Part shown: piece after piece, positions 22,130-51,926 of the stretch
How the letters are laid out: the number at the start of each line of letters is the position of its first letter
How positions within the stretch are numbered: the first letter of the stretch is position 1
Assembly (NCBI GenBank): GCA_964506945.1
Contig: CAZDOC010000007.1
Span: forward strand, 1,284 to 65,283
DNA from: an uncultured Gammaproteobacteria bacterium
GTDB lineage: Bacteria; Pseudomonadota; Gammaproteobacteria; CAZDOC01
DNA length: 64,000 bases
Reading direction: 5' to 3'
Notes under the pieces: model-generated
Seen by the model: the letters and a program-made list of their open reading frames with translations, nothing else
What the model was told of the DNA's origin: nothing
Databases searched by the model: none
Position numbers and translations under genes: made by a program

Positions 22130-22220
22130 GGAGAGGTGGCAGAGTGGTTGAATGCACCGGTCTTGAAAACCGGCAAGGGTTTATAGCCCTTCCAGGGTTC
22201 GAATCCCTGCCTCTCCGCCA
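22130..22220 (+). tRNA. tRNA-Ser(TGA)
   Basis: Acceptor stem GGAGAGG/CCTCTCC-G-CCA, anticodon arm CCGGT-CTTGAAA-ACCGG, long variable arm, GGTTCGAATCC T-arm. Confidence 0.97.
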
Positions 22221-26792: not shown

Positions 26793-28415
26793 TTGGAGTT
26801 CGAAAAGCGGACACCCGAAGAATCGGAAGGCGCCATCCTCGCGCACAGCCTGCCGCTGAAGAACCACAGGCTCAGGAAGGGTGCCGTTCTGACGGACGCG
26901 GATATCAGGGACCTGGTGGCGGAAGGATACGCGTTCATCAGGGTCGCCATTCCAGGGCAGGATGACATGGTCGAGGATGATGCCGCGCTCAGCCTGGCAA
27001 TGGCTCTCCAGGGGGAGCGGGTCAGGGTCGAACGGCCGTTGATGGGCAGATGTAATCTCTGGGCTGAGTCATACGGTTTGCTGGTGCTTGAGCACGATAT
27101 CCTGGATACCATAAATCTGGTGCATGAGTCGATGACGGTGGCGACCTTGAAACCCTTCGCCATCGTCAGTGATTCACAGTTGCTGGCTACCGTGAAGGCC
27201 ATACCCTATGCGGTTGCCACCGATGTGATCCGGAAGTGTCACGATATTCTGGCCCAACACCCTGCGGCCATACGTGTACGGCCCTTCCAGCGGTATTCGG
27301 TGGGTCTGATTCAGACGAGTCTGGGTACGCCCAAGGACGATTTGCTCGACAAGACCCGAACGGTTCTGAGTAACCGTCTCCACAATCTGAATAGCAGTAT
27401 CGGTTGGGAAGTCCGTTGCCAGCACGAAGAGGAAGCGCTTGTGTCGGCCATACACGAACTCAGGCAACAGGGCGTGGACATGATGGTGATATCGGGGGCC
27501 TCCGCGGTAGTGGATCGCCGTGACGTGATCCCTTCCGCCATTACTGCGGTGGGTGGCGCCGTACGGCATTACGGCATGCCGGTCGATCCCGGCAATCTGC
27601 TCCTGCTGGCCGGCGTGGATGATATCCCGGTGCTGGGCATGCCAGGCTGTGCGCGCTCGCCCAAGTACAATGGTTTCGATATGGTCCTGGAACGACTGAT
27701 TGCCGGCCTGGATGTCAGTGCGCGGGATATCATGTCCATGGGGGTTGGAGGGCTATTGAACGAGATCGGAACCCGCCCACAGCCACGGGTCACCACTCAT
27801 GCCGCTGCTGTCGCCAGCAAGGCAAGGAAGATTACGGCGTTGGTATTGGCCGCTGGCGAGTCGAAACGCATGGGGGATGACAACAAACTGTTGCTTGAGT
27901 TCGGGGGACGGCCCATGATTGCGCATACACTGGAAAACCTGGTGAACTCATGTATCGATGACATCCTGGTAATCACCGGCAAGGACGAGGACAGGATCCG
28001 GCTTGCCCTGGGTCAGTATGATCTCGAGTTCGTTCATAATGCCTGCTATGCGGATGGGATCAGCACATCGATCATCTGTGGCCTCAATCGTCTGGACGAT
28101 AACAGCGAGGCCGTACTGGTGGTACTGGGTGACATGCCGATGATCTCCAGTGAATGTCTGGAAAGACTGGTGACCAGCCTGGACCCAGAAGGTGGCTGTG
28201 AGATATGTGTGCCCGTCTACGATGGAAAATGGGGCAACCCGGTATTATGGTCCCGCAGGTTCTTTCAGGAAATGATGCACCTCGACGGAGATCATGGCGC
28301 CAGGCATCTGCTCTATAAGCATGCCGAGGTGGTAAAGGAGGTAGAGATGCCGGATGCGGGTGTGCTGATGGATTTCGATACCAGGGAATCCCTGTCAGAT
28401 CTTCAGCTTCAATAG
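26793..28415 (+). CDS. MoeA-like molybdopterin-binding domain fused to MocA/MobA-like nucleotidyltransferase
   Basis: GAILAHS...GRCNL...YGMPVDPGNLL...GMPGCARSP, followed by LVLAAGESKRMG..NKLL, LGDMP, GNPVLW, GDHGAR. TTG start. Confidence 0.88.
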   Translation: MEFEKRTPEESEGAILAHSLPLKNHRLRKGAVLTDADIRDLVAEGYAFIRVAIPGQDDMVEDDAALSLAMALQGERVRVERPLMGRCNLWAESYGLLVLEHDILDTINLVHESMTVATLKPFAIVSDSQLLATVKAIPYAVATDVIRKCHDILAQHPAAIRVRPFQRYSVGLIQTSLGTPKDDLLDKTRTVLSNRLHNLNSSIGWEVRCQHEEEALVSAIHELRQQGVDMMVISGASAVVDRRDVIPSAITAVGGAVRHYGMPVDPGNLLLLAGVDDIPVLGMPGCARSPKYNGFDMVLERLIAGLDVSARDIMSMGVGGLLNEIGTRPQPRVTTHAAAVASKARKITALVLAAGESKRMGDDNKLLLEFGGRPMIAHTLENLVNSCIDDILVITGKDEDRIRLALGQYDLEFVHNACYADGISTSIICGLNRLDDNSEAVLVVLGDMPMISSECLERLVTSLDPEGGCEICVPVYDGKWGNPVLWSRRFFQEMMHLDGDHGARHLLYKHAEVVKEVEMPDAGVLMDFDTRESLSDLQLQ

Positions 28416-28422: not shown

Positions 28423-29403
28423 GTGCAGACGATGGCCCGGATCAATGAACAAGGCAGCCGTCGGGATCTGAAGGAGTCTGTTCGGCTGGCTATCGTCCAG
28501 GTCGAGGCCGAACAGTTATCCAACCGGGATTTCTCCCGTTTTGACTGCCAGCAGTTCGACTTGCCCGGGGAGCTGACCGTCTACGATATCACCATCGACC
28601 CGGCGATAATCAATCGCAAGGCCATGCATATCGGCAAGGATGCTAATAACGACTATTTCCTGACCACCCTGATCTATGGTGAGGCGCATATAGAACAACA
28701 GGGTGCGAGTTATACACTGAAACCGGGGGACCTCGCCCTGATGGCCGGCGGGTTACCCTATCTGATCAAATATACCGAACGCAGCAACAGACTGATTGTC
28801 CGTATTCCCTTTCACATCTTCAAGGAACGCCTGGTCAGCTCGGATCACCACTTGATCATCGGCAAGCTGCCCAGTGATGGTATCGGCCTGGTCGTCAACG
28901 ATCTGATGAAACTGGTGGCTTCGGATGCGCGCAAGCTGCCGATCACGGATCAATATACTTTGTCACAGAGTCTTCTGGAACTGACGGGCGCCTTGACCCG
29001 CTCACTGATCAAGACCCTGGATCTGAAGCAGAAAAGCAGGCATCCGGGGCTGTTCAACAGGGTATTGGCCTATATCGAGGAACACTACATGGATCCGGGT
29101 CTGACGCCGAAGATGATCGCGGATGCCAACGGCATATCGACCCGGTATCTGCATAGCCTGTTCCGGCAGTCCGGAAAAACGGTCTTGAGATGGGTATGGG
29201 AACGTCGCCTGAAGGCGGCTCGCAGCGATCTGCTGGATCCCACCCAGATGCAAAAACGTATCAGTGAAATAGCCTTCCGTCAGGGCTTCAACGATTCGGC
29301 GCATTTCAGTCGATCCTTCAGAAACCGTTTTGGAATTTCCCCCACTGAATTACGCCGCCGGGCCGCGGCGGCAAAATCAACGCCTCCAGCCGCGGATACC
29401 TGA
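28423..29403 (+). CDS. AraC family transcriptional regulator
   Basis: C-terminal double HTH (ISTRYLHSLF...ISEIAFRQGFNDSAHFSRSFRNRFGISPTELR) and N-terminal ligand-binding domain. Confidence 0.92.
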   Translation: MQTMARINEQGSRRDLKESVRLAIVQVEAEQLSNRDFSRFDCQQFDLPGELTVYDITIDPAIINRKAMHIGKDANNDYFLTTLIYGEAHIEQQGASYTLKPGDLALMAGGLPYLIKYTERSNRLIVRIPFHIFKERLVSSDHHLIIGKLPSDGIGLVVNDLMKLVASDARKLPITDQYTLSQSLLELTGALTRSLIKTLDLKQKSRHPGLFNRVLAYIEEHYMDPGLTPKMIADANGISTRYLHSLFRQSGKTVLRWVWERRLKAARSDLLDPTQMQKRISEIAFRQGFNDSAHFSRSFRNRFGISPTELRRRAAAAKSTPPAADT

Positions 29404-29643
29404 GTGCACTCACAGACAAGAGGTCGAACCTTGCAGGTCAAGTAAAATCTTGCCGTTGGGCCTATTATGGAAATACAGAAATTCATGGCGGGCTCCCGGG
29501 GCCCGTAACACTCCGAGACACGCTGGCAGAGCGGATGCATCCTGGCGAAATGCGGTCACATGGAGCGGCCGTCAACGCAGCAGGTTTCCGTGCTGCCGCC
29601 TGGAATGCCCGTGCTATCCCGGCAAACCACGAGGGACAACAAA

Positions 29644-30732
29644 ATGAACGCTCTCACACAACCGAAAGTGGGTGTCATATTCAAATCATATGAGCCCATG
29701 GCATCGATGCGGAAGTACGCCATGCAGACGGAGGCCTCCGGTATGACGGGAGGGTTCTGGATAGCCGAGGCCTATCACTGGTTCCGTCAATACGGCCTGG
29801 AATCGCGCGGCTGCTTCGCCACCCTGGCCGCGGTCGCCCTGGCAACCCGGGATATTCCCGTGGGGCTGGGCATCACCTCCCCCTACATCAGGCACCCGAC
29901 GGCGCTGGCTTCCGAGGCCGCGGCCATCGACGAACTCTCCAATGGGCGGTTCATCATGGGGATCGGCGTAGGCAAGGTCGGTATCGAGTACCTTGAATAC
30001 GATATCGATGTACTCAGGCCGGTTCCGGTCCATCATGAATCCATGCAGATCATGCGCAAGGTATTCAGCGGCGAGCCTTTTGATTACAAAGGCAAGATTT
30101 TTGAATCCAGCATGCCTGGGTATGACCGTGCCGCGGCGGGTCTGCGCACCGATATCCCCATCTATGTCGGTGCGACGGGGCCGTTCATGCAACGTCTTTC
30201 AGGCCGGGAAAGTGATGGCATGCTTCTGGCCGGCCTGACCTCGCCTGCATTCGTGAAGTATGCCCGGGACAATATGCGGGCCGGTGCTGAAAAGGCCGGT
30301 CGCACCCTGCCGGAAGATTTCCCCGTGGGCGGCGTCATACTCTGCGCCTGTTCCAGGGATGGCGACAAGGCCCGGGACGCGACCCGTTCCTATACGGGAA
30401 CCTATATCGTCAACAAGATACGCAATATCAAAAACGATGTCATTCTTGCAGGATCCGGACTTCCCGACGAGGCCTGGGAACCCTTCCGCAAAGCCATCGC
30501 CGAGGGCACACAGGACCATGTGACGCACCTGGTCACCGATGAGATGATGCGCAGGTTCACGGTGATCTCGGGTACACCGGAGGATTGCCTGGAGATCACC
30601 CAGGAACTGGTGGATGCCGGGCTCAACCTGCCGTTGCTGGAGGTTGTCGGTGAAACGGAACAGGACAACCTGGAGACCATACGACTGATGGGTCAGGAAG
30701 TCGTACCCAATCTTGTCCCGGGCGTGAGATAG
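29644..30732 (+). CDS. Luciferase-like (LLM) oxidoreductase, Mer-like, probably F420-dependent
   Basis: FWIAEAY, GLGITSPYIRHP, DELSNGRFIMGIGVG, PIYVGATGP. Start at 29644 with GAGGG RBS. F420 use is inferred from context. Confidence 0.82.
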   Translation: MNALTQPKVGVIFKSYEPMASMRKYAMQTEASGMTGGFWIAEAYHWFRQYGLESRGCFATLAAVALATRDIPVGLGITSPYIRHPTALASEAAAIDELSNGRFIMGIGVGKVGIEYLEYDIDVLRPVPVHHESMQIMRKVFSGEPFDYKGKIFESSMPGYDRAAAGLRTDIPIYVGATGPFMQRLSGRESDGMLLAGLTSPAFVKYARDNMRAGAEKAGRTLPEDFPVGGVILCACSRDGDKARDATRSYTGTYIVNKIRNIKNDVILAGSGLPDEAWEPFRKAIAEGTQDHVTHLVTDEMMRRFTVISGTPEDCLEITQELVDAGLNLPLLEVVGETEQDNLETIRLMGQEVVPNLVPGVR

Positions 30733-30742
30733 AGGTGGGATC

Positions 30743-31699
30743 ATGAAGCTGTCCACATTCAGAAAATGCCCGGACAAGGAGGTCACCATGGGAGGGGTGA
30801 TCAGGGATGTCTATATCGATCTGCATGTAATGTCTGGTGGCGAATTGCCGGCGGACATGATCGGATTCCTGCGCGCCGGTGAGGAGGCCATGGATCAGGC
30901 CCGCGCGCTGTTGCGGGAGGCTGAAGCCAATCTTCACGGCTCGCGGCCGGCGGATCTGTGTCGTGATGATGGTGCGCGCTATGCCTATGATGAAGACGAG
31001 GTGGAACAGCTGTCCCCGGTGCCTCAGCCCGGGAAGATAGTCCACACTTCCTGTAATTTTGATTCCCATCTTGCCGAACTGAGTACCTGGAACGATCCGG
31101 AATGGGCATCGCACAACTGGCAGGATTTCCATTTTGAGCATCCCACGGGCTTTCTGGAGGCGCCTTCTTCCGTGGTTCCAAACGGCGCCAGGGTCGAGAT
31201 CCCGGTCTTTACCCGGCAACTCGATTACGAGATAGAGATAGCCATCGTCATTGCCAGGGAGGCCTACAGGGTCTCCGTGGCCGACGCCCCTGACTATGTG
31301 GCGGGCTACATGATATTCAACGATCTCTCCGCACGTGATATCCAGGCCCGGGAACATTCCAACAAGGTCATCCTGATGGGCAAGAGTTTCAGGGGGTCAT
31401 GCCCGTTGGGACCCTTCCTGGTGACTACGGATGAATTGTCCGATCCGCACAATCTGGAGATGAAACTGCGCGTCAACGGTGAATTGCGTCAGGACGCGAA
31501 TACCTCGCAAATGCATTACAAGACCGCGGAGCTGGTTTCCTGGTGGTCACATATGGGCCTGTATCCCGGAGATGTGATCACCAGTGGCAGTCCTCCCGGG
31601 GTCATCGCGGGCATGAAGGAGCCGGTATGGCTGAAGCCCGGGGATGTGATCGATGCCAGTATTCAGGAACTGGGTACCCTGACCACCTATATCGGCTGA
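30743..31699 (+). CDS. Fumarylacetoacetate hydrolase family protein
   Basis: LDYEIEIAIVI, GYMIFNDLSARDIQ, GKSF, LGPFLVT, PGDVITSGSPPGV. Confidence 0.92.
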   Translation: MKLSTFRKCPDKEVTMGGVIRDVYIDLHVMSGGELPADMIGFLRAGEEAMDQARALLREAEANLHGSRPADLCRDDGARYAYDEDEVEQLSPVPQPGKIVHTSCNFDSHLAELSTWNDPEWASHNWQDFHFEHPTGFLEAPSSVVPNGARVEIPVFTRQLDYEIEIAIVIAREAYRVSVADAPDYVAGYMIFNDLSARDIQAREHSNKVILMGKSFRGSCPLGPFLVTTDELSDPHNLEMKLRVNGELRQDANTSQMHYKTAELVSWWSHMGLYPGDVITSGSPPGVIAGMKEPVWLKPGDVIDASIQELGTLTTYIG

Positions 31700-31750
31700 A
31701 TGCCGGGCTGCGCGGTATGCCGGCCGGTTGAATCTTAACGAGGCAGAACT

Positions 31751-33022
31751 ATGTCCACGAGCTTGAACGACGATCTGATCAACGAGGCCATTCGACACAT
31801 CGATCGGGAGCGCCTGATCAACCTGGTCATGAGACTGGTGGACATACCCAGTCCAACCGGACAGGAAGCGGAAATGGCGCGAGCGGTTCATGAGGAACTC
31901 GAGTCCGCCGGTTTTGACGCAACGCTGCAGCCCATTGGTGATGATCGCTACAATGCCGTTGGCCGTCTGCAGGGGCGGGGAGGTGGCAAGTCCGTGATGT
32001 TCAACGGGCACCTGGATACCTCGTTCGGGCCAGAACAGGCCCATCGCGGCATAGGCTACCAATGCAAGGCCACCCTGATCGATGATGCATGGATCTATGG
32101 TATGGGTTCCTTCAATATGAAGAGCGCCATGGGAACCTATATCGTCGCCTCCGAGGCCATCAGCAAGGCGGGTATCACCCTGGCCGGGGATATCGTGATC
32201 GCGGGCGTTGCCGGTGAGATTGAAAAGGCGCCGGTGAATGAATTCGAGGGTCGCCAGTATCAGGGCTACGGTGTCGGCACGAAATATGCGATAACCCATG
32301 GCGCCATAGCCGATTACTGTATCCTGGGTGAGCCAACCAACATGATGCTCATCCCCAGGCATTGTGGCACGACCTGGATCAAGATAACCATCCCCGGTCG
32401 CCTGATCCATACCGCGTGGTCGGATGTGGAAAGCAATGCCATCAATAAATCGAGGAAGGTCCTGGACGCCATTCATGAATGGATCCCGGATTACTGCCGG
32501 CGCAATGCCCTGGGAGATTTTCAACCCCGGGTAAACGTCTCTGCGATACAGGGTGGCTGGACCTGGCGTGGTGCCAGGACACCGGACAATTGCTGCATCT
32601 ACATGGATGTGCGTACCTTGCCGGACACGTTGCCGGTCGAGGCCTATGCCGAGGTACGCACACTGCTTGACGATCTGGTCAGGGCAAACCCCGAGCTGGA
32701 AGGCAGCAAGGCGGAGGTCTATGTCAGCGCACCAGGCACTTCGATACCCGATGACCACGAGCTGGTACGGACCATCATCGATGCGCATACCGCCCAGCTC
32801 GGGCAGGCGCCAGAGATGGGGACGGAAACCTGGTACAGCGATGCGGCGCATATGAATCGTTATGGGATCCCGACCGTCAATTACGGATCCGCGGGCAGGA
32901 TCCAGAGCGGTGGCGGCGGCTTCTCGGTCAATCAGGGCGAGGCCGTCCACATAGGTGATATGCTGGACATCATCAAGGTGTATATTCAGGTTCTGATCAC
33001 GCTTTGCGGTACCGTGGACTAG
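31751..33022 (+). CDS. M20/ArgE-DapE family amidohydrolase with atypical metal ligands
   Basis: FNGHLDT, IYGMGSFNMKS, AGEIE, LGEPT, SDAAHM. Confidence 0.8.
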   Translation: MSTSLNDDLINEAIRHIDRERLINLVMRLVDIPSPTGQEAEMARAVHEELESAGFDATLQPIGDDRYNAVGRLQGRGGGKSVMFNGHLDTSFGPEQAHRGIGYQCKATLIDDAWIYGMGSFNMKSAMGTYIVASEAISKAGITLAGDIVIAGVAGEIEKAPVNEFEGRQYQGYGVGTKYAITHGAIADYCILGEPTNMMLIPRHCGTTWIKITIPGRLIHTAWSDVESNAINKSRKVLDAIHEWIPDYCRRNALGDFQPRVNVSAIQGGWTWRGARTPDNCCIYMDVRTLPDTLPVEAYAEVRTLLDDLVRANPELEGSKAEVYVSAPGTSIPDDHELVRTIIDAHTAQLGQAPEMGTETWYSDAAHMNRYGIPTVNYGSAGRIQSGGGGFSVNQGEAVHIGDMLDIIKVYIQVLITLCGTVD

Positions 33023-33034
33023 ATTCAGGCAGCC

Positions 33035-35389
33035 ATGCACGACGTATACGAGGATATCCTCAGCAAGGCCGTATCGGATGGGCCGGTTTCCCATACGGAT
33101 GCCTTGCGCCTTGGCGAATGCCAGGACTTGCCGGCATTGATGCGGACTGCATCCCGCATCCGTGACCAGGGTCATGGCCCGATCGTGGGTTATTCCCCCA
33201 AGGTCTTCATTCCACTGACGAAGTTGTGTCGTGATGTCTGCCACTACTGTACCTTTGCCGAAGTGCCCGGAAGGGCGGGTCCCGCGTATCTGGATGCCGA
33301 TGAAGTCATGGCCATAGCCAGATCGGGTCTCGAGGCCGGATGTCACGAGGCCTTGTTCACCCTCGGCGACAAGCCGGAGTTGCGCTATGCGGCCGCGCGA
33401 CGCGAGTTGCGGGCACTGGGACACCGGACCACGCTTTCGTATCTGGCCGACATGGCCAGACTGGTGCTGAACGAGACCGGTCTGTTGCCCCATATCAATG
33501 CCGGGGTCATGGGCCGGGGGGATCTGCTCGCATTGAGAGCCGTTTCCCTGTCCCAGGGCCTGATGCTGGAAAACATCTCCTCGAGGCTATGCCTCAGGGG
33601 CGGCCCACATTTTGGATCCCCGGACAAGATCCCGGCGGCGCGTCTCAGTACCATCGCGGCTGCCGGTGGTGCTCGCGTGCCGTTCACCTCAGGGATCCTG
33701 ATAGGTATCGGGGAGACACGCAGAGAGCGTATCGAATCACTGCTGGCATTGCGGGATCTGAATGATACCGATGGCCATATCCAGGAGATCATCATCCAGA
33801 ATTTTCGCCGCAAGGCGGCGACTCTGATGCGGGATGCCCCGGAACCGGATATCGATGACATGCTCTGGACGGTTTGCATGGCGCGAATCATCTTCGGCGC
33901 GCGGATGAATATTCAGGTTCCACCCAACCTCATGCCTGAGGCCCTGCCGGCCCTCATCGATGCCGGTATCAATGACTGGGGCGGTATTTCACCGGTGACC
34001 CCGGATCATGTCAATCCCGAGGCGGCATGGCCACATCTGTCGCGACTGCGATCCGTCACTGAAGCCGCCGGAAAACAACTGACAGCCAGACTGCCGCTCT
34101 ATCCCTCCTATATCGAGCGTATGCACGAATGGGTGGACAGTGACCTTCATCGGCAGGTATTGCTGAGGATCGACGCCCTGGGTCATGCGCGTACCGATGA
34201 CTGGCATCCCGGAGATGGGCTGGCCGTCCCCCGGCTCAGACGACCCGGCGCGGTTACTGGCTCCGGCAGCAGACTCACTGGCGTGATCAGCAAGGCCATG
34301 GCGGGACAGAGGTTGAGCGAGGATGAGATCGTGGGGCTGTTCGCAAGCAGGGGGGGCGATCTCGAGGCGGTCTGCCGCGCCGCCGACGAGCTACGCATCG
34401 CTGTCAATGGCCAGGTCGTCAGTTATGTCGTCAATCGCAATATCAACTACACCAATATCTGTTATTTCGGTTGCCGGTTCTGCGCCTTCTCCAAGGGCCG
34501 GGTCAGCGAGAATCTGCGCGAACGCGGTTACAGGCTGGACCTGAAGGAGATCCAGAAACGTGTACTTGAGGCCTGGTCCGCCGGGGCAACGGAGGTCTGC
34601 CTGCAGGGGGGCATACACCCGGACTATACCGGTGAGACCTATCTCGCCATCGTCGATGCGATCAAGAAGGTACAGCCCAATATCCATGTGCATGCGTTCT
34701 CCCCCCTGGAGATCAGTCACGGCGCCGATACCCTGGGTCTGCCACTGAAGGCATATCTGCTGGAACTGCAGCAGGCGGGTCTGGCGAGTCTTCCCGGAAC
34801 GGCCGCGGAGATCCTGGACGACGAGGTTCGCGCCATCATATGCCCTGACAAACTGAATACCGGCGAATGGCTGAAGGTCATTAAAACGGCGCATGATATC
34901 GGCATGCCCACCACGGCGACGATCATGTTCGGGCATGTCGACACACCACGTCACTGGGCAAGGCATTTGTTGCTGATCCGTGATTTGCAGGCCGGGACCG
35001 GTGGCTTCACGGAGTTCGTGCCACTACCCTATATCCACATGCAGGCCCCGCTGAGTAAAAAGGGTCGTTCCAGGCCTGGCCCCACATACCGTGAGACGCT
35101 GTTGATGCATGCTGTCGCGCGTCTTGTCCTGCATACGGAAATCGGCAATATACAGGCGTCATGGGTGAAGCTGGGGCAGGAAGGGATCAAGGACTGCCTG
35201 GACGCCGGGGTAAACGATCTGGGTGGCACACTGATGAATGAGAGTATCAGTCGTGCGGCCGGTGCGGGTTTCGGGCAGGAATTCAGTGAAGCCGATCTCA
35301 GGTGTTTCATTCAGTCCTGTGGCAGGATGCCACAACAGCGGACGACACTTTATGGTGATGTGGCCGCCATAAGCAGTCGCAGTGCCTGA
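33035..35389 (+). CDS. fbiC: Bifunctional FO (7,8-didemethyl-8-hydroxy-5-deazariboflavin) synthase, CofG-CofH fusion
   Basis: CofG domain YSPKVFIPLTKLCRDVCHYC..QVPPNL..GINDWGGISP; CofH domain NRNINYTNICYFGCRFCAFSKG..EVCLQGG..TEFVPLP..GVNDLGGTLMNESISRAAG. Confidence 0.95.
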   Translation: MHDVYEDILSKAVSDGPVSHTDALRLGECQDLPALMRTASRIRDQGHGPIVGYSPKVFIPLTKLCRDVCHYCTFAEVPGRAGPAYLDADEVMAIARSGLEAGCHEALFTLGDKPELRYAAARRELRALGHRTTLSYLADMARLVLNETGLLPHINAGVMGRGDLLALRAVSLSQGLMLENISSRLCLRGGPHFGSPDKIPAARLSTIAAAGGARVPFTSGILIGIGETRRERIESLLALRDLNDTDGHIQEIIIQNFRRKAATLMRDAPEPDIDDMLWTVCMARIIFGARMNIQVPPNLMPEALPALIDAGINDWGGISPVTPDHVNPEAAWPHLSRLRSVTEAAGKQLTARLPLYPSYIERMHEWVDSDLHRQVLLRIDALGHARTDDWHPGDGLAVPRLRRPGAVTGSGSRLTGVISKAMAGQRLSEDEIVGLFASRGGDLEAVCRAADELRIAVNGQVVSYVVNRNINYTNICYFGCRFCAFSKGRVSENLRERGYRLDLKEIQKRVLEAWSAGATEVCLQGGIHPDYTGETYLAIVDAIKKVQPNIHVHAFSPLEISHGADTLGLPLKAYLLELQQAGLASLPGTAAEILDDEVRAIICPDKLNTGEWLKVIKTAHDIGMPTTATIMFGHVDTPRHWARHLLLIRDLQAGTGGFTEFVPLPYIHMQAPLSKKGRSRPGPTYRETLLMHAVARLVLHTEIGNIQASWVKLGQEGIKDCLDAGVNDLGGTLMNESISRAAGAGFGQEFSEADLRCFIQSCGRMPQQRTTLYGDVAAISSRSA

Positions 35390-35446
35390 GTTTGCCGGCG
35401 TGATGAGCGTGGCGATCTCTGGTCGGGCATACAGGAGGTGTTATTG

Positions 35447-36262
35447 ATGACAGCACATGAATTGCATGAGTCCCTGTCGGCCGCAAAGGTTTATGACCTC
35501 GGTCAGCCCTACTGGAATACCATGCCGGTGCATCCCTTCGATCCACCGTTCCAGTCTTATCTCTATCGTTACCATGAATACGTGCGCAAGTCCTTCGATG
35601 AACTGGGCATAGAGCCCGGCTTCTCCGACGCCATCAGTATCATGATCACCTCGAATCATTCAGGCACACATTTCGATCTGCCGATTCACATGTCACAGGA
35701 CAACAAGGTCCAGGGGATCGATGTTACTCCCTATCAGCGGGATACCGGCTTCAAGGACCTGCCGCAACCCCTGCACAGTCTCGAAGCCGTCCCCCCTCTC
35801 ATCCTGCGTACCGTATTGCTGGATATTCCGGCCTACAAGGGGGTAGATATACTGGCCGAACGCTATCCGATTACCGCGCAAGACCTCGAAGGGGCATTGG
35901 CGCGGGAAGAACTGTCCATCAATGAGGGCGATTGCATCCTGATCCGTACCGGCTATGGACGGTATTTCGAGACGGACAGGCAGACCTATCTGAATCGATG
36001 GGCCGGACTGACGGATGCGGCGGCCCATTGGCTCGCCGATCGGAACCCCCGCCTCGTAGGCATGGATAACCTGTCCCTGGGTGTTCCTGAGCCATTTTCA
36101 TGCCATCGCATCCTGCTGGTCGAACAGGGAATATACCTGATGAAGAGCCTGGCACTGGAGGAGATATGCCATGACGAACAATATCTGTCCACGGTGATCG
36201 TGTTGCCGCTGAAGATAAAAGGGGGGGAGGCTTCGCTGGTGCGGCCCATGGCGTTGGCATGA
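35447..36262 (+). CDS. Cyclase family hydrolase (kynurenine formamidase/isatin hydrolase-like)
   Basis: HSGTHFDLPIH, LIRTGY, LVGMDN, PLKIKGGEASLVRP. ATG at 35447 follows an AGGAGG RBS. Confidence 0.88.
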   Translation: MTAHELHESLSAAKVYDLGQPYWNTMPVHPFDPPFQSYLYRYHEYVRKSFDELGIEPGFSDAISIMITSNHSGTHFDLPIHMSQDNKVQGIDVTPYQRDTGFKDLPQPLHSLEAVPPLILRTVLLDIPAYKGVDILAERYPITAQDLEGALAREELSINEGDCILIRTGYGRYFETDRQTYLNRWAGLTDAAAHWLADRNPRLVGMDNLSLGVPEPFSCHRILLVEQGIYLMKSLALEEICHDEQYLSTVIVLPLKIKGGEASLVRPMALA

Positions 36263-36356
36263 ACCGCGTGAAAGTATCCCTTTGACAGGTCGGGGATCCG
36301 GGTGGATGCGGGGATCACCATCCTTGCCCGGGTCCTGAAGAGAACAGATCAAGCCT

Positions 36357-37553
36357 ATGAGATATAACATACCTAGAGAGAAAGTCTGGACCAGTTCCAT
36401 CAATGAAAGGCCTGATATCCAGGCCTGCTTCGATCATGAAAAGCCCATTCGTTTCTACGATACCACGCTCAGGGATGGTGAGCAGTCAGTCGGGGTGTGC
36501 TTCAGTCCGGAACAAAAGTTCGAGATTGCCTGCATGCTTTCCGAGTTGGGTGTCGGCCGTATTGAATCGGGCTTTCCACAGGTATCTGAGGCAGATAACG
36601 AGGCGGTGAAGCGCATTCTTGCGGCAGGACTCGATGCGGAGATATGGGGTTTTTCCCGTTGTGTGCAGTCTGACATCGATGCCCATGTCGAGCTGGGCAC
36701 CGAGAACATATTGATGGAGATCTCGACCAGCGAGATCAAGATGAAGGCTTACGGATTCGATCGGCCCAAGGTCATGGAGCGCGTCTGCGCCTCGATTGAG
36801 CATGCCCGCTCCAACGGCATCGGCAAGATCAATTTCTTCGCGGTAGACGCCACCCGCTCGGATCCGGGGTTCCTGAAGGAGATATATACTGCCGCGATCT
36901 CGGCCGGTGCGGATGAGATCTCCGTGGTCGATACCATCGGCGCCTGTGCCCCCGAGGCAGTGGAGTGGCTGATCAGGGAGGTGAAATCCTGGATTGGAGA
37001 TACCCCGCTGCATTGGCATGGGCACAACGATTTTGGTCTCGCGACGGCCTCGGCGATTGCCGCGGTACGGGCTGGCGCGGACTGGATCCAGGGGACCATC
37101 AACGGCATGGGTGAACGTGCCGGCAATGCCGATATCGCCGAGGTGGCGCTGGCACTGCAGTGTCTCTACCACGTGCCCGCGGAGCTGGACCTGGGCCGGG
37201 CGCGAGCCGTCTCAAAATATGTCCAGCAAGCCGGCGCCTATACTGTCGATGGCTGGAAACCGGTGGTCGGTGAATATCTCTATACCCGCGAGAGCGGCGC
37301 GGTCGCCACGCAGTTCCACCTTCCCGAGGCGATAGAGCCCTATGCCGCGGATATCGTTGCTGCTCCACGCAGGATCGTGCTGGGCAAGAAAAGTGGCCTG
37401 GCGAGCCTGGACCTGAAGGCCAGGGAACTGGGTATCGATATCCCGAAGGCACAGCGCGATGCGGTTCTCGCCGAGGTCAAGGCCCTCTCAGTGGAGAAAT
37501 CAGGTCTGGTCTCGGATGATGAATTCATCACCATCGTCAGCCATCATGGATGA
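36357..37553 (+). CDS. Homocitrate/isopropylmalate synthase-like DRE-TIM enzyme without a LeuA regulatory domain
   Basis: DTTLRDGEQ, HWHGHNDFGLA, INGMGERAGNA; 398 aa. Confidence 0.88.
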   Translation: MRYNIPREKVWTSSINERPDIQACFDHEKPIRFYDTTLRDGEQSVGVCFSPEQKFEIACMLSELGVGRIESGFPQVSEADNEAVKRILAAGLDAEIWGFSRCVQSDIDAHVELGTENILMEISTSEIKMKAYGFDRPKVMERVCASIEHARSNGIGKINFFAVDATRSDPGFLKEIYTAAISAGADEISVVDTIGACAPEAVEWLIREVKSWIGDTPLHWHGHNDFGLATASAIAAVRAGADWIQGTINGMGERAGNADIAEVALALQCLYHVPAELDLGRARAVSKYVQQAGAYTVDGWKPVVGEYLYTRESGAVATQFHLPEAIEPYAADIVAAPRRIVLGKKSGLASLDLKARELGIDIPKAQRDAVLAEVKALSVEKSGLVSDDEFITIVSHHG

Positions 37554-37568
37554 CTCCGGTTATGGACC

Positions 37569-38522
37569 ATGAAGCAGATTGAAAGTGTGTGTATCGTCGG
37601 CGCCGGCACCATCGGCAGTCTTTTCGCCGGGCATCTTGGAACGGTCGTTGATACGAAGGTGCTGACGCGGAGGGAGGCGCATGCCCGGACCCTGAATGAA
37701 TGCGGTCTGCGGATCAGCGGCAAATCCGATCTGCTGGCGATGGTGACGGCATCGACGAAGGCCACCGATTTGGGAGATCCCGATCTGGTGATCATCGCCA
37801 CCAAGGCGCTGGCGGTGGAAACCAGTGCCAGGAACATACAGGGCCACTTTCCTGATGCGCATGTATTGATGGTGCAGAATGGCCTGGGCTGCGAGGAGAT
37901 CGTGAAGCAATATGGTGACTGGCCCATTATCTCGGGGGTCACCTTCATGAGCGGTACGCGGCATTCGGACGCGCATGTGGAGTATGAACTCGATACCGCC
38001 ACATGGATAGGTCCCTGGGCGCAGAGCAATGCCAGTTTCGAGTCGGTCAAGCAGGTGGCGGCGTTGCTGGAACACGCCGGCCTGAAGGCCGAGGCCTATG
38101 CCGATCTGTTGCCGCATCAATGGTCCAAGCTCATCTTCAATTCCGCCATCAACAGCATTGCGGCCATAACCGATCTGCCACATGTAAAGGCCTTCGCCAG
38201 GCAAGCCGCGATCGATGATCTGGGTCATCTGGTTCATGCCATGATGGATGAGGCCAAGGCTATTGCCGCGGCACGAGGCGTCACGCTTGCGGATGATCCC
38301 TGGGAGATGAATGTGAAGGCCGTGGGGCAGGGCATGACCGGTGGCGATGCCTACGCCCATGTGCCATCGATGCTCGATGATATACAAAACCGGCGCCTGA
38401 CGGAGATCGACTGGATCACCGGGGCGATCGTGCGCGAGGCCATCAAGGCGGGGATCCCGGCGCCCTATCATGAGACGCTTTACCGGCTGGTGAAGGCGCG
38501 GGAGTCGAGCTGGAGGGCCTGA
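37569..38522 (+). CDS. Ketopantoate reductase (PanE/ApbA) family oxidoreductase 1
   Basis: GAGTIGS, IATKA, QNGLG, WSKLIFNSAIN, SMLDDI, TEIDWITG. Confidence 0.88.
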   Translation: MKQIESVCIVGAGTIGSLFAGHLGTVVDTKVLTRREAHARTLNECGLRISGKSDLLAMVTASTKATDLGDPDLVIIATKALAVETSARNIQGHFPDAHVLMVQNGLGCEEIVKQYGDWPIISGVTFMSGTRHSDAHVEYELDTATWIGPWAQSNASFESVKQVAALLEHAGLKAEAYADLLPHQWSKLIFNSAINSIAAITDLPHVKAFARQAAIDDLGHLVHAMMDEAKAIAAARGVTLADDPWEMNVKAVGQGMTGGDAYAHVPSMLDDIQNRRLTEIDWITGAIVREAIKAGIPAPYHETLYRLVKARESSWRA

Positions 38523-38631
38523 AAGTATTGTGATCATCCCGGACCTTCCTGTGATACAGGGAGGTGTCGCCAGAATCGACCACATGAGTGACCGATCTTG
38601 CGAGACCACCGGGAACCGCGTTTTCGGTGCG

Positions 38632-38778: not shown

Positions 38779-39726
38779 ATGAGGATCTGCATTATCGGCT
38801 GTGGCGCGATCGGCAGTCTGTACGCCGCGCACCTTGGCACCCTGGATGACGTGGAGGTCTGGGCCTACGATCTCAACAAGGACCACGTCGATGCCATCAA
38901 CGAAAATGGCCTGCGTCTGACGGGACTCAGCGATATCGTCGCCCCGGTCCAGGCACGTTGTGATGCCGCCGACATACCTCCCTGTGATTTCGGCATCATC
39001 GCCACCAAGAGCATGTTCACGCGCCCGGCAATGGAGGCGAGCGCGCGGATCTTCACTGATGGTGCCGTGTGCTCCGTCCAGAATGGAATAGGCAATGAAG
39101 AGGTCGTGGCCGAATATGTCCCCCGGGTCATACAGGGCACGATCTTCCCGGCCGGCCATATCACCGCCCCGGGTGTCGTCAACCAGGATGCCGCCGGTAA
39201 CACCTGGATCGGGCCGTTCGCCCCCAAGCCGGCCAGCATGCAGGAGGTCGAGCAACTGGCGGATGCCATACTCCGCAGCGGCATGGATTGCCAGGCCATG
39301 GAAGACGCTCGTGGCGCCCAGTGGACCAAACTGATATTCAATGCCGCTTCCAATGCCATGGGGGCCCTGACCCGCCTGCCTCATGGTGTCGCCTGTGATC
39401 AACCCGCTGTACGCAAGCTCATGTCCGGGCTGGTAAGGGAAGGCGTGGCCGTGGCGGATGCCCTGGGGATCACCCTGGACTCCGATCCCGAGGCCTTGCT
39501 GGACTATGGCAGGGAGAAGGCCTACTACCATCCCCCCAGCATGCTGCAGGATGTCCTGGCGCATAGAAATACCGAGGTCGATGCACTCAATGGCGGCATC
39601 GTCCGCCTGGGCAAGGAACTCGGCATACCCTGTCCACTGAACGAGGCCTGTACCGCCATCATCAAGGGTCTGGAATATTCCTGGGTCATGGAAATACCGG
39701 AAGACACCCAGACGGCCCATCGCTGA
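38779..39726 (+). CDS. Ketopantoate reductase (PanE/ApbA) family oxidoreductase 2
   Basis: GCGAIGS, IATKS, QNGIG, WTKLIFNAASN, PSMLQDV, TEVDALNG. Confidence 0.88.
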   Translation: MRICIIGCGAIGSLYAAHLGTLDDVEVWAYDLNKDHVDAINENGLRLTGLSDIVAPVQARCDAADIPPCDFGIIATKSMFTRPAMEASARIFTDGAVCSVQNGIGNEEVVAEYVPRVIQGTIFPAGHITAPGVVNQDAAGNTWIGPFAPKPASMQEVEQLADAILRSGMDCQAMEDARGAQWTKLIFNAASNAMGALTRLPHGVACDQPAVRKLMSGLVREGVAVADALGITLDSDPEALLDYGREKAYYHPPSMLQDVLAHRNTEVDALNGGIVRLGKELGIPCPLNEACTAIIKGLEYSWVMEIPEDTQTAHR

Positions 39727-39839: not shown

Positions 39840-40994
39840 ATGAGTGAATATATCAACCGTTTCCGGCCCAGCCAGGCTGAAATCGATCGCCGCTATGCCA
39901 ATACCCGCATGGCAATGGAACAGGCCGGACTCGATGCCTTGATCATCAGTGGCAGTGAATACAGTGGCTTCGAGGGTGCGGTCCGCTACATGTGCGGCTT
40001 TCTTGTCCTGCATCGTTATGCCTATGTCGTCATCCCGCTGGAAGGCGAGCCGGTGTGTGTGTTTCCGCGCGAGGCAACCTGGGTCGGCGATCACAGCGCC
40101 ACGTTTATCGAACGCAGGGAGTTTCCCGCCCATTGTGGTGAATGGATGGCTGGCTTCCTGAAAGAGAGGAAGATCAAACGGCTGGGGATCTACGGGCTGG
40201 AATACATCATCAATGTGCGTGACTATCGGGCCCTCGCGGCATGCGATTTCGAACTGATCGATTTTGAACGGCAATTCGATTATTCACGGGCGCAAAAAAG
40301 CGAGGAAGAACTCCGCTCGGTGCGGCATTCCATGGAGATCAACAAGGAAGGGGTCCTCGCGGTCATACGCTCATACCAGGCCGGCAGGACCGAGGCCGAG
40401 CTGATGGGGCTGGCGGAAGATGTCTTCGCACGCAGGGGATGTGCCAGGAACACCATGGACATGGTGCAGATGGGTCCGAACGGCTCCCTGGAGCCACAGA
40501 TGGTGTTTCCCAGTCAGAGACCCCTGCGTGACACGGATGGCATGATGTACGGGCTGGAAATTGCGGGAGAAGGGGGCCACTGGGTAGAATTCTCCCGGCC
40601 GCTGATGCCGGGAGGTATGGACCCCGTTACCCGGGAGATGATGTCCGCCTACCAGGAATTCCACGAACTGGCCAGGGAATACATGAAGGCGGGCAACCGT
40701 GTGGAAGACGTCGTCAATGCGTGCATGAAGCCGATCTACGACAGGGGTTACCGCTCGGGACATGTCTGCGGCCATTCCATCGGCATGACCATGATCGAGA
40801 TGCCCCGTATCGGTGAGGGTTTCGACTTCGTGCTGCCGGAGAATATGGTCTGTTCCATGCACCCGCATTTCATGAACCAGGAACGCACCCATTCCCTGTA
40901 TTTCCAGGAGACCTATCGTGTGGGCAAGGACGCCGGGGAACCCCTGTCAGGGGTGCCCATCAAGGCCTACGAAGGTGGAGAGACCCAGCTTTGA
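39840..40994 (+). CDS. M24 (creatinase/Xaa-Pro aminopeptidase fold) hydrolase
   Basis: N-terminal EIDRRY..AGLDALII domain, KSEEEL, GHVCGHSIG, LPENMVCSMHP, QETY. The 3' end overlaps the convergent MFS gene by 35 bp. Confidence 0.82.
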   Translation: MSEYINRFRPSQAEIDRRYANTRMAMEQAGLDALIISGSEYSGFEGAVRYMCGFLVLHRYAYVVIPLEGEPVCVFPREATWVGDHSATFIERREFPAHCGEWMAGFLKERKIKRLGIYGLEYIINVRDYRALAACDFELIDFERQFDYSRAQKSEEELRSVRHSMEINKEGVLAVIRSYQAGRTEAELMGLAEDVFARRGCARNTMDMVQMGPNGSLEPQMVFPSQRPLRDTDGMMYGLEIAGEGGHWVEFSRPLMPGGMDPVTREMMSAYQEFHELAREYMKAGNRVEDVVNACMKPIYDRGYRSGHVCGHSIGMTMIEMPRIGEGFDFVLPENMVCSMHPHFMNQERTHSLYFQETYRVGKDAGEPLSGVPIKAYEGGETQL

Positions 40995-42261
40995 GATGTT
41001 GTCGGCCGTTCACCTGTCGTAGTAATGGATAAGGGCCAAGCAGGGTGATCAGCATGGTGCCGATGACCGCGATGGCGGTCAATATCCAGAGCGCGCCGAT
41101 ATAGTTTCCCATATGGTCATAATAGATGCCGAGTATCGGCGGGCCGAAGGCCGAGCCGATCTGGAAGGCGGCGAACATGGTCCCATAGATCTGGCAAAAT
41201 GAACGAAGGCCAAAATAGCGGCTGCACAGGTAGGCAATTTCACTGATTTCCGATCCCGTGGCCAGGCCGACGAAGATCGCGGCGACGACGACCAGCTTGC
41301 CGGATGTGCCAAGCGCCAGGATGACGATGCCGGTGATCAGGAACAGCAGGAAGAATGCCGTGACATACGGGGCAAAGAAGTGATCCATCAGCAGCCCGCC
41401 CAGGATGCGCCCGGTGACCAGTCCCACACCCAGCAAGGACATGCACAGGGCGGCCTTGTCCGGGCTGATGCCACGGTCTGTCAGCATCGGCACCAGGTGC
41501 GCAAGGATACTGGTAATGGCGATGCCGACCAGCAGGAATGAGGTGAAGATCAGCCAGAAGCTTTTCGTCCTGAGGGCCTCCCGGGCAAGCAGGCCGGACG
41601 CGGATGAGGGCGCCGGCGATGCGATATTCGCCGGCATGTCTTCCAGGCCATCCGCCTGCAGGCCCATATCCCGGGGTCTTTCCCTGAACAGGAACAGGGT
41701 CATGGGCAGGGAGACACACAGGACCGTCAGGGCGAAACCGACATAGGCGGAGCGCCAGCCATAATGCTCGATCATGAACTGGGCAAAGGCCGGCACGAGG
41801 GTGGCGCCCACGCCAAAGCCGGACAGTGCGATACCCAGCGCCAGACCACGCCTGCGGTTGAACCAGTTGATGATCACCCGGGAGTAACTCTGTGGCAGGG
41901 TTCCGGCACCCAGGATCGGGATCAGCAGGAACATGGCATAGAATTGCCAGATATTGCCCGTCAGCAGGGCCATTGATGCCACCGTCAGGGCCATCATGAC
42001 GATCGAGGGGATGATGACGCGTCGCACCCCCAGCCTGTCGATCAGCAGCCCGATGCCTGGCGAGACAATGACCACCGCGATATTGGTCATGGTCAGCGCG
42101 AATGACATCTCACCGCGCTGCCAGCCAAATTCACTTTCCAGCGGTCTGACGAAGGTTCCAAAGGCGAAGACGGTGAACATGGCATAGCTGAGTGCCATGC
42201 CCACGAATGAAGTGAGTACGTTCCACCAGCCGAAAAATATGGGTCGTCCTGAATGTGGCAT
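40960..42261 (-). CDS. MFS transporter
   Basis: About 12 TM segments; GLLIDRLGVRR, WFNRRRGLALG, GRILGGLLMD. Confidence 0.9.
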   Translation of the reverse strand: MPHSGRPIFFGWWNVLTSFVGMALSYAMFTVFAFGTFVRPLESEFGWQRGEMSFALTMTNIAVVIVSPGIGLLIDRLGVRRVIIPSIVMMALTVASMALLTGNIWQFYAMFLLIPILGAGTLPQSYSRVIINWFNRRRGLALGIALSGFGVGATLVPAFAQFMIEHYGWRSAYVGFALTVLCVSLPMTLFLFRERPRDMGLQADGLEDMPANIASPAPSSASGLLAREALRTKSFWLIFTSFLLVGIAITSILAHLVPMLTDRGISPDKAALCMSLLGVGLVTGRILGGLLMDHFFAPYVTAFFLLFLITGIVILALGTSGKLVVVAAIFVGLATGSEISEIAYLCSRYFGLRSFCQIYGTMFAAFQIGSAFGPPILGIYYDHMGNYIGALWILTAIAVIGTMLITLLGPYPLLRQVNGRQHLKAGSLHLRRP

Positions 42262-42463
42262 GATGCCCCGTTTTTGTTATGCACCCACAGTCAACTGATC
42301 CGACATCCAAGGTCAAGCAGAAGCGGCCTGCCCATACTAGGATATGGATAAGGATTCTACTACGCCATCCTGACCCGGGACCAGATCCGGACGGAGTCCG
42401 GCAGCCTTGCGAGCGCCTGCTGGAACAGGTGACGACGAACAGTTTGCGACACGGAACATGACC

Positions 42464-43373: not shown

Positions 43374-44144
43374 TCAGGGCCGGAACAGGTCCTGGGATTT
43401 GTCCCGTAACAGGCACCGTGCTCCCTGTCCTGATGGTGAGACGGGATAACCCCGGATCAGAACGACGGGTGTTGCCTCGTCGGCCTCCCCCATCATCAGG
43501 CAGGCCGCAGCGGCGAGAGCGTCGGCATCCGCGGTCTCGCTGACCAGTAACCGGCGGTCATACATGTCATGCCGGCCCCGCAGGTCGCGCAGGGTCTGAA
43601 AGCCGGCCGCGCCGATGGCGACACCGACACTGCCCAGGCGCCAGGGACGGCCGATACTGTCGGTAACGAGGATCCCGACCTGTTTGCCGGTGATGCGCAG
43701 CAGCGATTCCCGCAGGGCCCTGGCCGAGGCATCCGGGTCCCTGGGTAGCAGCAGGACCCGTTCACCGCCATCATCGGCATTACCGATATTGGAATGATCG
43801 ATGCCTGCATTCGCCAGTATGACACCGCTGTTGTGTTCGACGATGATGAGTCCGGGTCTGAGGGCGATGATCTCCCGTGACTCCGCCAGCACCAGTTCAA
43901 TCAGCCTGGGATCCTTGTCGACCTTATGGGCCAGTTCCCGCGCCTGCCGTGAAGGGGTGACCGATGCCAGTTCGACAAAACGGTCCTCGGCCTTGGATAC
44001 GATCTTCTGTGCCAGGCAGAGAATATCGCCATCATGCAAGGCATTGCCTGATGCGGTCAGCGCCTGCGCCATGATCCGCGCCAGATCCACACCGGCCTCG
44101 ATGACGGGTATGCCCGGGATGGTGATGACTTGTAGTGTATCCAA
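43374..44144 (-). CDS. cofE: Coenzyme F420-0:L-glutamate ligase (standalone, no nitroreductase domain)
   Basis: AQKIVSKAEDR, ANAGIDHSN, LLPRDPDASA, VTDSIGRPWRLG, ADALAAAA, GEADEATPVVLIRG. Likely TTG start at 44144 (track gives 44348). Confidence 0.93.
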   Translation of the reverse strand: MDTLQVITIPGIPVIEAGVDLARIMAQALTASGNALHDGDILCLAQKIVSKAEDRFVELASVTPSRQARELAHKVDKDPRLIELVLAESREIIALRPGLIIVEHNSGVILANAGIDHSNIGNADDGGERVLLLPRDPDASARALRESLLRITGKQVGILVTDSIGRPWRLGSVGVAIGAAGFQTLRDLRGRHDMYDRRLLVSETADADALAAAACLMMGEADEATPVVLIRGYPVSPSGQGARCLLRDKSQDLFRP

Positions 44145-44315
44145 AGGCTGTGTCTCGTGCGCACCATGTTGCGGGAGCTGGATCGACCAACAGGTCTCGT
44201 GCAAGACCCCCGACAGGAGGATCCTTTTCGGTCCATTGTCAGGGGCATCCCGGGGCCGAGATCCCGGCCCCGGCCATTCTAGCGGAGAACCCTGATTGAT
44301 GACACACTGTCCAGC

Positions 44316-49067: not shown

Positions 49068-49070
49068 CGT

Positions 49071-51917: not shown

Positions 51918-51926
51918 AGGGGAACC

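Follow-up and report, generated by a model that had tools for sequence, protein, structure and literature searches.

An FO synthase gene embedded in a probable AraC-controlled, F420-linked degradative operon of a gammaproteobacterium

Introduction

Why Proteobacteria make the cofactor F420 was described as an open question in a 2021 review, and as of that year no F420-dependent enzyme had been experimentally studied in bacteria outside the Actinobacteria (PMC8498797). The present work concerns a stretch of 64,000 nucleotides from an uncultured gammaproteobacterium (contig CAZDOC010000007.1 of assembly GCA_964506945.1, hereafter called the window). In this DNA fbiC, the gene coding for the FO synthase, lies in the middle of an operon-like run of enzyme genes directly behind a gene for an AraC-family regulator, and apart from the other genes of F420 synthesis, cofC, cofD and cofE. 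The clustering of F420 genes is in itself ordinary. The question raised by this locus is why the FO synthase gene is lodged among the genes of what looks like a catabolic pathway.

The initial annotation of the window answered that the radical-SAM step of F420 synthesis is co-regulated with an F420-using enzyme of the operon, so that the cofactor would be made on demand. This reading of the fbiC placement is partly supported by the analysis presented here, and it is sharpened by a predicted operator, by the sole-copy status of fbiC, by the conservation of the embedded order within one clade and by a molybdenum (Mo) hydroxylase partner. We consider it rather probable that fbiC left the canonical F420 operon and settled in an AraC-controlled operon, in which it would be co-induced with fno, coding for the NADPH-dependent F420 reductase, and with the probable degradation of an N-heteroaromatic or amino-aromatic carboxylate.

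Results

The sole FO synthase gene of the genome lies in a compact operon

The fbiC product scored 1094.9 with the bifunctional CofGH family NF006687 (curated cut-off 1018). Both halves also exceeded their own cut-offs (TIGR03550, 482 vs 213; TIGR03551, 555 vs 374), and two radical-SAM CX3CX2C motifs are present, CRDVCHYC at residue 65 and CYFGCRFC at residue 476. On these scores fbiC is a complete CofGH fusion, predicted to be a working FO synthase gene. No second fbiC was found in the genome of the window (2.66 Mb, 97% complete), and the embedded gene is the only one of CofH type in this genome and in G402-G409 (eight whole genomes searched, that of the window included). The species-level genome collection contains no other member of the order to which this assembly (G000) belongs.

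Upstream of fbiC are the genes of a Mer-like luciferase-like oxidoreductase (LLM), a fumarylacetoacetate-hydrolase-family enzyme (FAH) and an M20 hydrolase; downstream are those of a cyclase-family hydrolase, an alkylmalate-synthase-like enzyme resembling homocitrate synthase (HCS-like) and a 2-oxoacid reductase (PanE1). The initial annotation had described these seven genes as co-oriented, separated by less than 100 bp and placed right after the AraC gene, and the coordinates bear this out, with successive gaps of 10, 51, 12, 48, 94 and 15 bp. The start of the LLM gene at 29644 agrees with homologues of 362-365 aa and with a GAGGGA ribosome-binding site. The gap between the AraC and LLM genes measures 240 bp and that between PanE1 and PanE2 256 bp, and the co-oriented run goes on through PanE2 and then the M24 gene. 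The distance of about 8 kb that had been noted between fbiC and the cofC, cofD and cofE genes was also recovered, cofE beginning 8 kb downstream of fbiC.

An internal promoter or terminator that would isolate fbiC was looked for, and no signal rose above shuffled sequence. In consensus scans, no sigma-70-like or terminator-like site was detected around fbiC, and the region as a whole held no more such sites than shuffled sequence. Folding of the M20-fbiC, fbiC-cyclase and cyclase-HCS spacers was no more stable than that of their shuffles (z from -0.8 to -1.5). The only notably stable structure is a hairpin region without T run in the PanE1-PanE2 gap (38522-38779, z -3.85), a place at which a transcript may begin, end or be processed. 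The operon, fbiC included, is predicted to be co-transcribed.

fbiC occupies the same place in related gammaproteobacterial clusters

The context of fbiC was surveyed at the 80 best fbiC loci of species-representative genomes. At 49 of them the gene closes a cofE-cofD-cofC-fbiC or fno-cofE-cofD-fbiC array, with its partners directly upstream. Among the same 80 loci the LLM-FAH-M20-fbiC order was confined to gammaproteobacterial metagenome-assembled genomes (Thiotrichaceae UBA4486, Thiodiazotropha and unclassified ones). Further cases were found in G010, in the cultured Elongatibacter sediminis (L092) and on contig L098, which brings the contiguous order to 12 gammaproteobacterial genomes or contigs in all. 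In Elongatibacter sediminis (assembly GCA_037892215.1) the cluster is carried by JAZHOG010000018.1. Because it recurs in 11 genomes or contigs besides the window, the embedded gene order is more than chance. The M20-fbiC junction is short throughout these loci and, in the fbiC tree, the embedded copies group together in one deep clade (SH-aLRT 100), whose internal branches are long and which stands apart from the remaining fbiC genes of Gammaproteobacteria. The distance of cofD from the cluster ranges from adjacency to hundreds of kb or more, and is at least 200 kb in several genomes. In the same genomes, identity to the window's proteins amounts to 78-84% for LLM, M20, PanE2 and M24, 61-68% for fbiC and 45-56% for cofD.

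The initial annotation had proposed to look for fbiC at this position in homologous clusters, and the outcome is divided: the gene holds the same place in 12 loci and is absent from five cluster copies (G360/L085, Halieaceae G401/L093, L094, L099 and L100). G360 and G401, the two hosts of such fbiC-less clusters that could be checked, carry a canonical F420 operon elsewhere in the genome. The common core of the cluster consists of AraC, LLM, FAH, M20 (absent in G360), a ring hydrolase, the HCS-like synthase, two PanE and M24; in other genomes PanE1-PanE2-M24 form a separate unit, often divergent. The M20, fbiC and hydrolase genes were considered as an FO-making trio, and this was rejected since M20 and the hydrolase are also paired in the absence of fbiC. 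Small membrane genes downstream of LLM in L093 and L094 were likewise discarded as core members, being missing from the window's genome.

The canonical proteobacterial operon, fno-cofE-cofD-cofC-fbiC, comprises the same five gene families as the window. As in that operon, fbiC is a CofGH fusion in the window and cofE is a stand-alone gene without nitroreductase domain. Unlike in that operon, fbiC is part of another operon at a distance of 8 kb, cofE has the opposite orientation and fno stands alone behind its own copy of the operator described below. The longest cofE and cofD open reading frames (ORFs) overlap head-to-head by 33 bp, with the cofE family match starting at residue ~65-73. This places the true cofE start probably ~190 bp further in, which would leave a divergent, operator-free cofE/cofD promoter gap. 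In Elongatibacter sediminis, a 477-aa product with F420_oxidored and F420_ligase domains (L092:1421-2854) is an apparent Fno-CofE fusion, encoded beside cofD and adjoined by a stand-alone second fno.

A predicted operator precedes both the LLM operon and fno

The regulator contains HTH_18, HTH_AraC and AraC_binding_2 domains and its best family is FeaR, with 147 bits, under the cut-off of 199. By aligning the regions upstream of LLM, a 30-nt tandem repeat, CAGWCAAS-N14-RGGTCAAR, was found. Of the three copies in the window (Table 1), copy 1 sits 20 nt ahead of a TATTAT -10-like hexamer, copy 2 belongs to the fno side of the locus and copy 3 precedes the BNR-MMPL-XdhC/MocA-AraC run. No ORF of note lies between copy 3 and the BNR gene (22472-23144), and the 0.9-kb gap after the tRNA-Ser gene gave no Rfam match. 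In the 2.66-Mb genome the 30-nt form with this spacing occurs only these three times, always in intergenic DNA, on the + strand and around the locus, and a loose pattern gave eight genome matches vs 1-5 in shuffled genomes.

In L002, the nearest relative with the same layout, the motif is present at both orthologous places, before LLM and before fno. Upstream of the first operon gene, variants of it were seen in L005, L009, L013, G010, L092, L098, L100, L093 and L094, so that the LLM-side operator is kept in ten other loci (L002 and these nine). The Mo hydroxylase operons showed no copy in front of them. The predicted operator has the architecture recognised by AraC/XylS activators, with a direct repeat abutting the -35 region, and its position before the LLM operon and before fno supports the view that FO synthesis and F420 reduction are regulated together with the putative pathway.

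The LLM is a predicted F420-dependent enzyme

The LLM matched PF00296 with 175 bits. Its top 13 NCBIfam matches are all F420-type LLM families (E from 3e-49 to 2e-17), the best non-F420 LLM family coming at 2e-13, and among solved structures Mer was the best match (1.6e-39), with LuxA-like proteins at 1.9e-17. Mer, the F420-dependent methylene-tetrahydromethanopterin reductase, is thus its best full-length match in both sequence and structure databases. Unlike Mer, the LLM has no C1-transfer genes in its context, and with TIGR03555 (Mer), its best curated family, it scored 168.1 bits against a cut-off of 348.7; the cut-offs of the other named F420 families were not reached either. As the protein falls under every curated cut-off, it would belong to a subfamily separate from Mer, and its substrate and cofactor are extrapolated. 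An identity as true Mer or as dehydro-F420 reductase was rejected on the Mer cut-off and on the absence of the LLM from 13 of the 16 fbiC-carrying genomes of the class sample.

This sample comprised 400 gammaproteobacterial genomes searched for LLM and fbiC. LLM was found in 3 and fbiC in 16, the three LLM genomes all carrying fbiC. Moreover, cofD was present in 11/11 cluster genomes and fbiC in every cluster genome searched. The F420 dependence of the LLM put forward in the initial annotation is hence kept as a prediction: the F420-type best matches and the F420 genes of all checkable cluster genomes speak for it, and the scores below every curated cut-off keep it from being more.

The LLM family is common in metagenomes (>120 clusters at 76% identity or more) and only two LLM-family genes are present in the window's genome. 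The second one, also Mer-like (208 bits to Mer), is located outside the window on the same contig, 32 kb downstream of the cluster's last gene (G000 contig C7:70549-71547; L097:6550-7548). It follows a DUF3179 gene, and a stand-alone CoxG gene lies on the opposite strand ~400 bp upstream of the latter. A search for FDOR-type enzymes (PF04075) gave no match in the genome, nor in the control genomes, and is therefore uninformative on their absence.

A Mo hydroxylase accompanies the cluster

The L-subunit of the Mo hydroxylase, a CoxG fusion, has orthologues in exactly the same 3/401 class genomes as LLM. Of 10 cluster genomes, 9 carry the hydroxylase, and in six of these it maps no more than about 10 kb from the cluster. 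Its genes are direct, divergently oriented neighbours of the LLM operon in G360 and L100 and stand beside AraC-LLM in L005. All three subunits, L, S (2Fe-2S) and M (FAD), are encoded. The best solved relative is quinoline 2-oxidoreductase (372 bits), the CO dehydrogenases being close (354 bits), and no curated cut-off was reached. In two relatives, the orthologues of the L-subunit (G404:C3:67831-70893 and G405:C1:1597243-1600281) were seen as six-frame matches, each with a single in-frame TGA. In the window, a second trimer of the xanthine oxidase (XO) family was observed at 51042-59237.

The M20 hydrolase aligns over its full length with NaaA, the 5-nitroanthranilate aminohydrolase. The slot after fbiC is taken in most genomes by a PuuE-allantoinase-like gene (e.g. 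L092:15749-16636, L005:12388-13260, L001:14612-15481), and in the window, L002 and G010 by an unrelated PF04199 cyclase-family hydrolase gene. The latter is a predicted non-orthologous displacement of the PuuE-like gene in the window's subclade; no PuuE-like gene was found in the window's genome. In the M24 protein, three of the four alignable prolidase metal ligands are changed (D to E, D to E and E to H, the H being kept), and the protein is 82-83% identical across genomes. The HCS-like product carries YDTTLRDGEQS and HWHGHND and matches PF00682 with 232 bits. Since it does not reach the named synthase families (best 329 vs 517; NifV 281 vs 463), the name homocitrate synthase is not established. 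Both PanE products are above the TIGR00745 subfamily cut-off. No oxygenase is encoded among the cluster's own genes.

Electron-transfer flavoprotein (ETF), ETF-quinone oxidoreductase (ETF-QO) and acyl-CoA dehydrogenase genes are found near the cluster in the window, and the last two near that of L098. Oxidoreductases with Mo-bis(pyranopterin guanine dinucleotide) (Mo-bisPGD) are encoded near the cluster in the window (51042-59237), L093, L100, L001 and L099; in the window, L093 and L100 they are joined by 4Fe-4S and membrane-anchor subunits. The neighbouring transporters differ between genomes, being of the major facilitator superfamily (MFS), TonB receptors or SulP. In L099 (7096-8311), genes for a 6-pyruvoyl-tetrahydropterin synthase and a short-chain dehydrogenase stand just upstream of LLM-FAH-M20, which hints at pterin chemistry and is perhaps a coincidence.

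The cluster lies in a low-GC stretch

The 20 kb from the tRNA-Ser gene to the MFS gene (22221-42261) have a GC content of 57.6%, the lowest of 723 windows (20 kb) of the genome, compared with a genome mean of 63.8% (sd 1.6; overall GC 63.6%), and cofE, cofD and cofC are near the genome average with 62-65%. No integrase was found among the annotated genes, and no repeat of the tRNA-Ser 3' end longer than 12 nt that could be an att site. The stretch looks like an old genomic island, and the cluster, fbiC included, was probably acquired horizontally. In L002 and in G010 the XdhC-MocA gene is directly upstream of AraC, as in the window, and in L098 it lies between fbiC and AraC.

Table 1. Genes and predicted operator copies of the locus, in window coordinates
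Feature	Position	Strand	Remarks
tRNA-Ser(tga)	22130..22220	+	left border of low-GC stretch
Operator copy 3, CAGTCAAG-N14-GGGTCAAA	22472..22501	+	640 bp upstream of BNR gene
Ycf48/BNR-like lipoprotein	23145..24173	+	syntenic in L002
MMPL/HAE3 RND transporter	24173..26608	+	L002 copy syntenic, 59% identical
XdhC-MocA fusion	26793..28415	+	predicted maturation factor for MCD-type Mo hydroxylases
AraC-family regulator	28423..29403	+	FeaR-like, AraC_binding_2 domain (Pfam/NCBIfam)
Operator copy 1, CAGACAAG-N14-AGGTCAAG	29413..29442	+	just past AraC stop codon, before LLM
LLM, Mer-like	29644..30732	+	predicted F420-dependent
FAH	30743..31699	+	
M20 hydrolase	31751..33022	+	closest to 5-nitroanthranilate aminohydrolase NaaA
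fbiC	33035..35389	+	CofG+CofH fusion, FO synthase; sole copy
PF04199 cyclase-family metal hydrolase	35438 (or 35447)..36262	+	
Alkylmalate-synthase (HCS/IPMS/NifV)-like	36357..37553	+	LRDGEQ and HxH motifs, no LeuA_dimer domain
PanE1, PanE/ApbA-family 2-oxoacid reductase	37569..38522	+	
PanE2, PanE/ApbA-family 2-oxoacid reductase	38779..39726	+	
M24 (creatinase/prolidase-fold) hydrolase	39840..40994	+	divergent, altered metal ligands
MFS transporter	40960..42261	-	oxalate/formate-lactate type; syntenic in L002 and L005
Operator copy 2, CAGTCAAC-N14-AGGTCAAG	42288..42317	+	in MFS/fno divergent gap
fno/npdG, NADPH-dependent F420 reductase	42407 (likely start near 42464)..43129	+	199.5 bits vs cut-off 149.8
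cofE	43374..44348	-	
cofD	44316..45296	+	
cofC	45298..45933	+	
XO-family Mo hydroxylase operon	45993..50448	-	coxM-coxS-(coxG-coxL fusion)

Discussion

These results can be combined in the following model. In one gammaproteobacterial cluster lineage, fbiC would have moved from the fno-cofE-cofD-cofC-fbiC operon to a place between the M20 and ring-hydrolase genes. The AraC-type regulator would bind the tandem repeat beside the -35 region before the LLM operon and before fno; with operator copies at both places, an inducer would bring about joint expression of the pathway enzymes, the FO synthase and the reductase that forms F420H2 with NADPH. CofC, CofD and CofE, whose genes lack the operator, would convert FO to F420. 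The pathway itself would most likely be an O2-independent breakdown of an N-heteroaromatic or amino-aromatic carboxylate. A hydroxylation-reduction-hydrolysis route of this kind is favoured by the co-distribution of the Mo hydroxylase, the NaaA-like M20, the PuuE-like slot and the lack of an oxygenase. The quinoline-oxidoreductase-like Mo hydroxylase may put a hydroxyl group from water on the substrate, and F420H2 may serve the Mer-like LLM as hydride donor, with the electron-poor ring or a C=N bond as acceptor. Ring opening and nitrogen removal would fall to the PuuE-like hydrolase (here of the cyclase family), the NaaA-like M20 and the M24 enzyme. FAH would cleave a beta-dicarbonyl, and the PanE reductases and the alkylmalate synthase would handle the resulting 2-oxoacids. 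Both the pathway chemistry and the use of F420 by the LLM are what we infer from sequence.

Parts of this model have counterparts in known systems. In Salmonella, cobalamin synthesis (cob) and the pdu pathway, which depends on B12, are induced together by PocR, a regulator of the AraC family. The proposed logic is that of the PocR regulon: an AraC-type activator that senses a substrate seems to act on a pathway and, at the same time, on the provision of the special cofactor it needs. Unlike there, the cofactor is F420, only fbiC and the recycling enzyme fno carry the operator, fbiC is inside the pathway operon and the regulation is deduced from sequence. The npd cluster for picrate and dinitrophenol degradation in Rhodococcus and Nocardioides encodes NpdG (Fno) and the Mer-like F420-dependent hydride transferases NpdC and NpdI. 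The window resembles it in the pairing of Fno with a Mer-like LLM (likened here without direct comparison with NpdC and NpdI) and in the proposed sequence, in which an electron-poor ring first accepts a hydride and hydrolysis comes after. The differences are that the window comes from another phylum and that npd is not known to include a Mo hydroxylase; we know of no cofactor biosynthesis gene in the npd cluster. Hydroxylate-reduce-hydrolyse routes for N-heterocycles are represented by nicotinate fermentation in Eubacterium barkeri and by the breakdown of ureides, in which PuuE allantoinase and an M20 amidohydrolase take part. Like these routes, the proposed pathway would combine an XO-family hydroxylase with a ring reduction at low potential and with ring amidohydrolases of the PuuE-like and M20 types, and would do so without an oxygenase. 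Its reductant would be F420H2 instead of ferredoxin, and the FAH, the two PanE, the alkylmalate synthase and the M24 match neither route. No description of a sole-copy FO synthase gene in a client operon, of an apparent regulon joining fbiC, fno and a pathway, or of this cluster was found in the literature searched. Nor was anything relevant found on F420 in marine Gammaproteobacteria or on NaaA homologues, or any paper tying Thiodiazotropha symbionts to F420.

Several observations weigh against the model. The operator was not seen upstream of LLM in L001, L003, L004 and L099, and adjacency and architecture are the only basis on which the AraC regulator is assigned to it. It was not found before cofE/cofD either, so that only FO supply and F420 reduction look inducible, and not the whole of F420 synthesis. 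The cofactor-on-demand claim of the initial annotation therefore holds better for fbiC (sole copy, tightly packed, a deep-clade unit, with the operator before its operon and before fno) than for the operator-free cofE, cofD and cofC. Consensus scans may miss an activator-independent internal promoter near fbiC. The LLM reaches no named F420 family, and the second Mer-like LLM on the contig means that the operon is not the sole possible user of F420. In the LLM tree the fbiC-less clusters nest among the embedded ones and at least three changes are needed, which implies that fbiC was dropped from the cluster repeatedly. Finally, a Claisen-type alkylmalate synthase and two PanE reductases are commoner in biosynthesis than in catabolism, and the degradative reading does not explain their roles well.

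In another explanation, fbiC travels with a horizontally transferred cluster as part of a self-sufficient mobile cassette, which would let the F420 pathway work in hosts without FO synthase. The position of the gene would then be non-regulatory and FO or F420 might be constitutive, through read-through transcription or an internal promoter. The stretch from tRNA-Ser to MFS, with the lowest GC of the genome while cofE, cofD and cofC are near the average, is in agreement with this proposal, as are the separation of the embedded fbiC clade from other gammaproteobacterial fbiC, the three or more losses in the LLM tree and the fact that G360 and G401, with their native canonical operon, carry the cluster without fbiC. 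It leaves unexplained the same operator before fno, kept in L002, and the consistently short M20-fbiC junction; cofC, cofD and cofE, equally needed, are outside the operon, and neither integrase nor att repeat was found. As an explanation opposed to co-regulation we hold it to be possible and doubtful. The two are not exclusive of each other, as horizontal acquisition would give the cluster, in self-sufficiency, a second reason for carrying fbiC.

The synthase and the reductases could alternatively indicate a biosynthetic cluster, making with the F420-dependent reductase a small molecule such as a hydroxy-acid-containing metabolite or a modified cofactor. The Claisen-condensation motifs are kept in the HCS-like protein, both PanE exceed the TIGR00745 cut-off, and the high conservation of LLM, M20, PanE2 and M24 would fit. 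F420-dependent LLM reductases are also documented in biosynthetic clusters, acting in some actinobacterial antibiotic pathways (PMC8498797). We nevertheless judge this explanation improbable: the cluster has no ligase, nonribosomal peptide or polyketide synthase, aminotransferase or methyltransferase gene and has three amide/amidine-type hydrolases, its regulator is FeaR-like, a type usual for catabolic operons, and the transporters beside it vary by genome. The strict co-distribution with an XO-family hydroxylase and the ETF, ETF-QO, acyl-CoA dehydrogenase and Mo-bisPGD genes close by point in the same direction. Still less probable, in our opinion, is that FO and not F420 is the relevant product, its deazaflavin head group serving as LLM cofactor or chromophore. 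An operon in need of the head group alone would account for fbiC alone being embedded, with cofC, cofD and cofE outside and cofD at least 200 kb away in several genomes. It would not account for the retention of cofD in all 11 cluster genomes or for the operator shared by fno, and the closest relatives of the LLM are F420 enzymes.

Under the model of AraC-controlled co-induction, the locus offers a defined candidate answer to the question of what F420 does in one proteobacterial group: a highly conserved operon with probable regulator and operator, accompanied by a Mo hydroxylase. As a cultured carrier, Elongatibacter sediminis, exists, the question is testable. More tentatively, and with less confidence than for the placement of fbiC itself, the cluster may reveal for the first time what F420 does physiologically in Gammaproteobacteria, among them the Thiodiazotropha symbionts of lucinid clams, which oxidise sulfur: an O2-independent, Mo-hydroxylase-started and F420H2-driven dearomatisation of an N-heteroaromatic or amino-aromatic acid. 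FO synthesis and F420 reduction would be turned on along with this pathway by an AraC regulator that senses the substrate, and the cofactor would thus be provided on demand. If true, this would be the second case, after B12 and propanediol in Salmonella, in which the synthesis of a costly cofactor is tied to the presence of a substrate.

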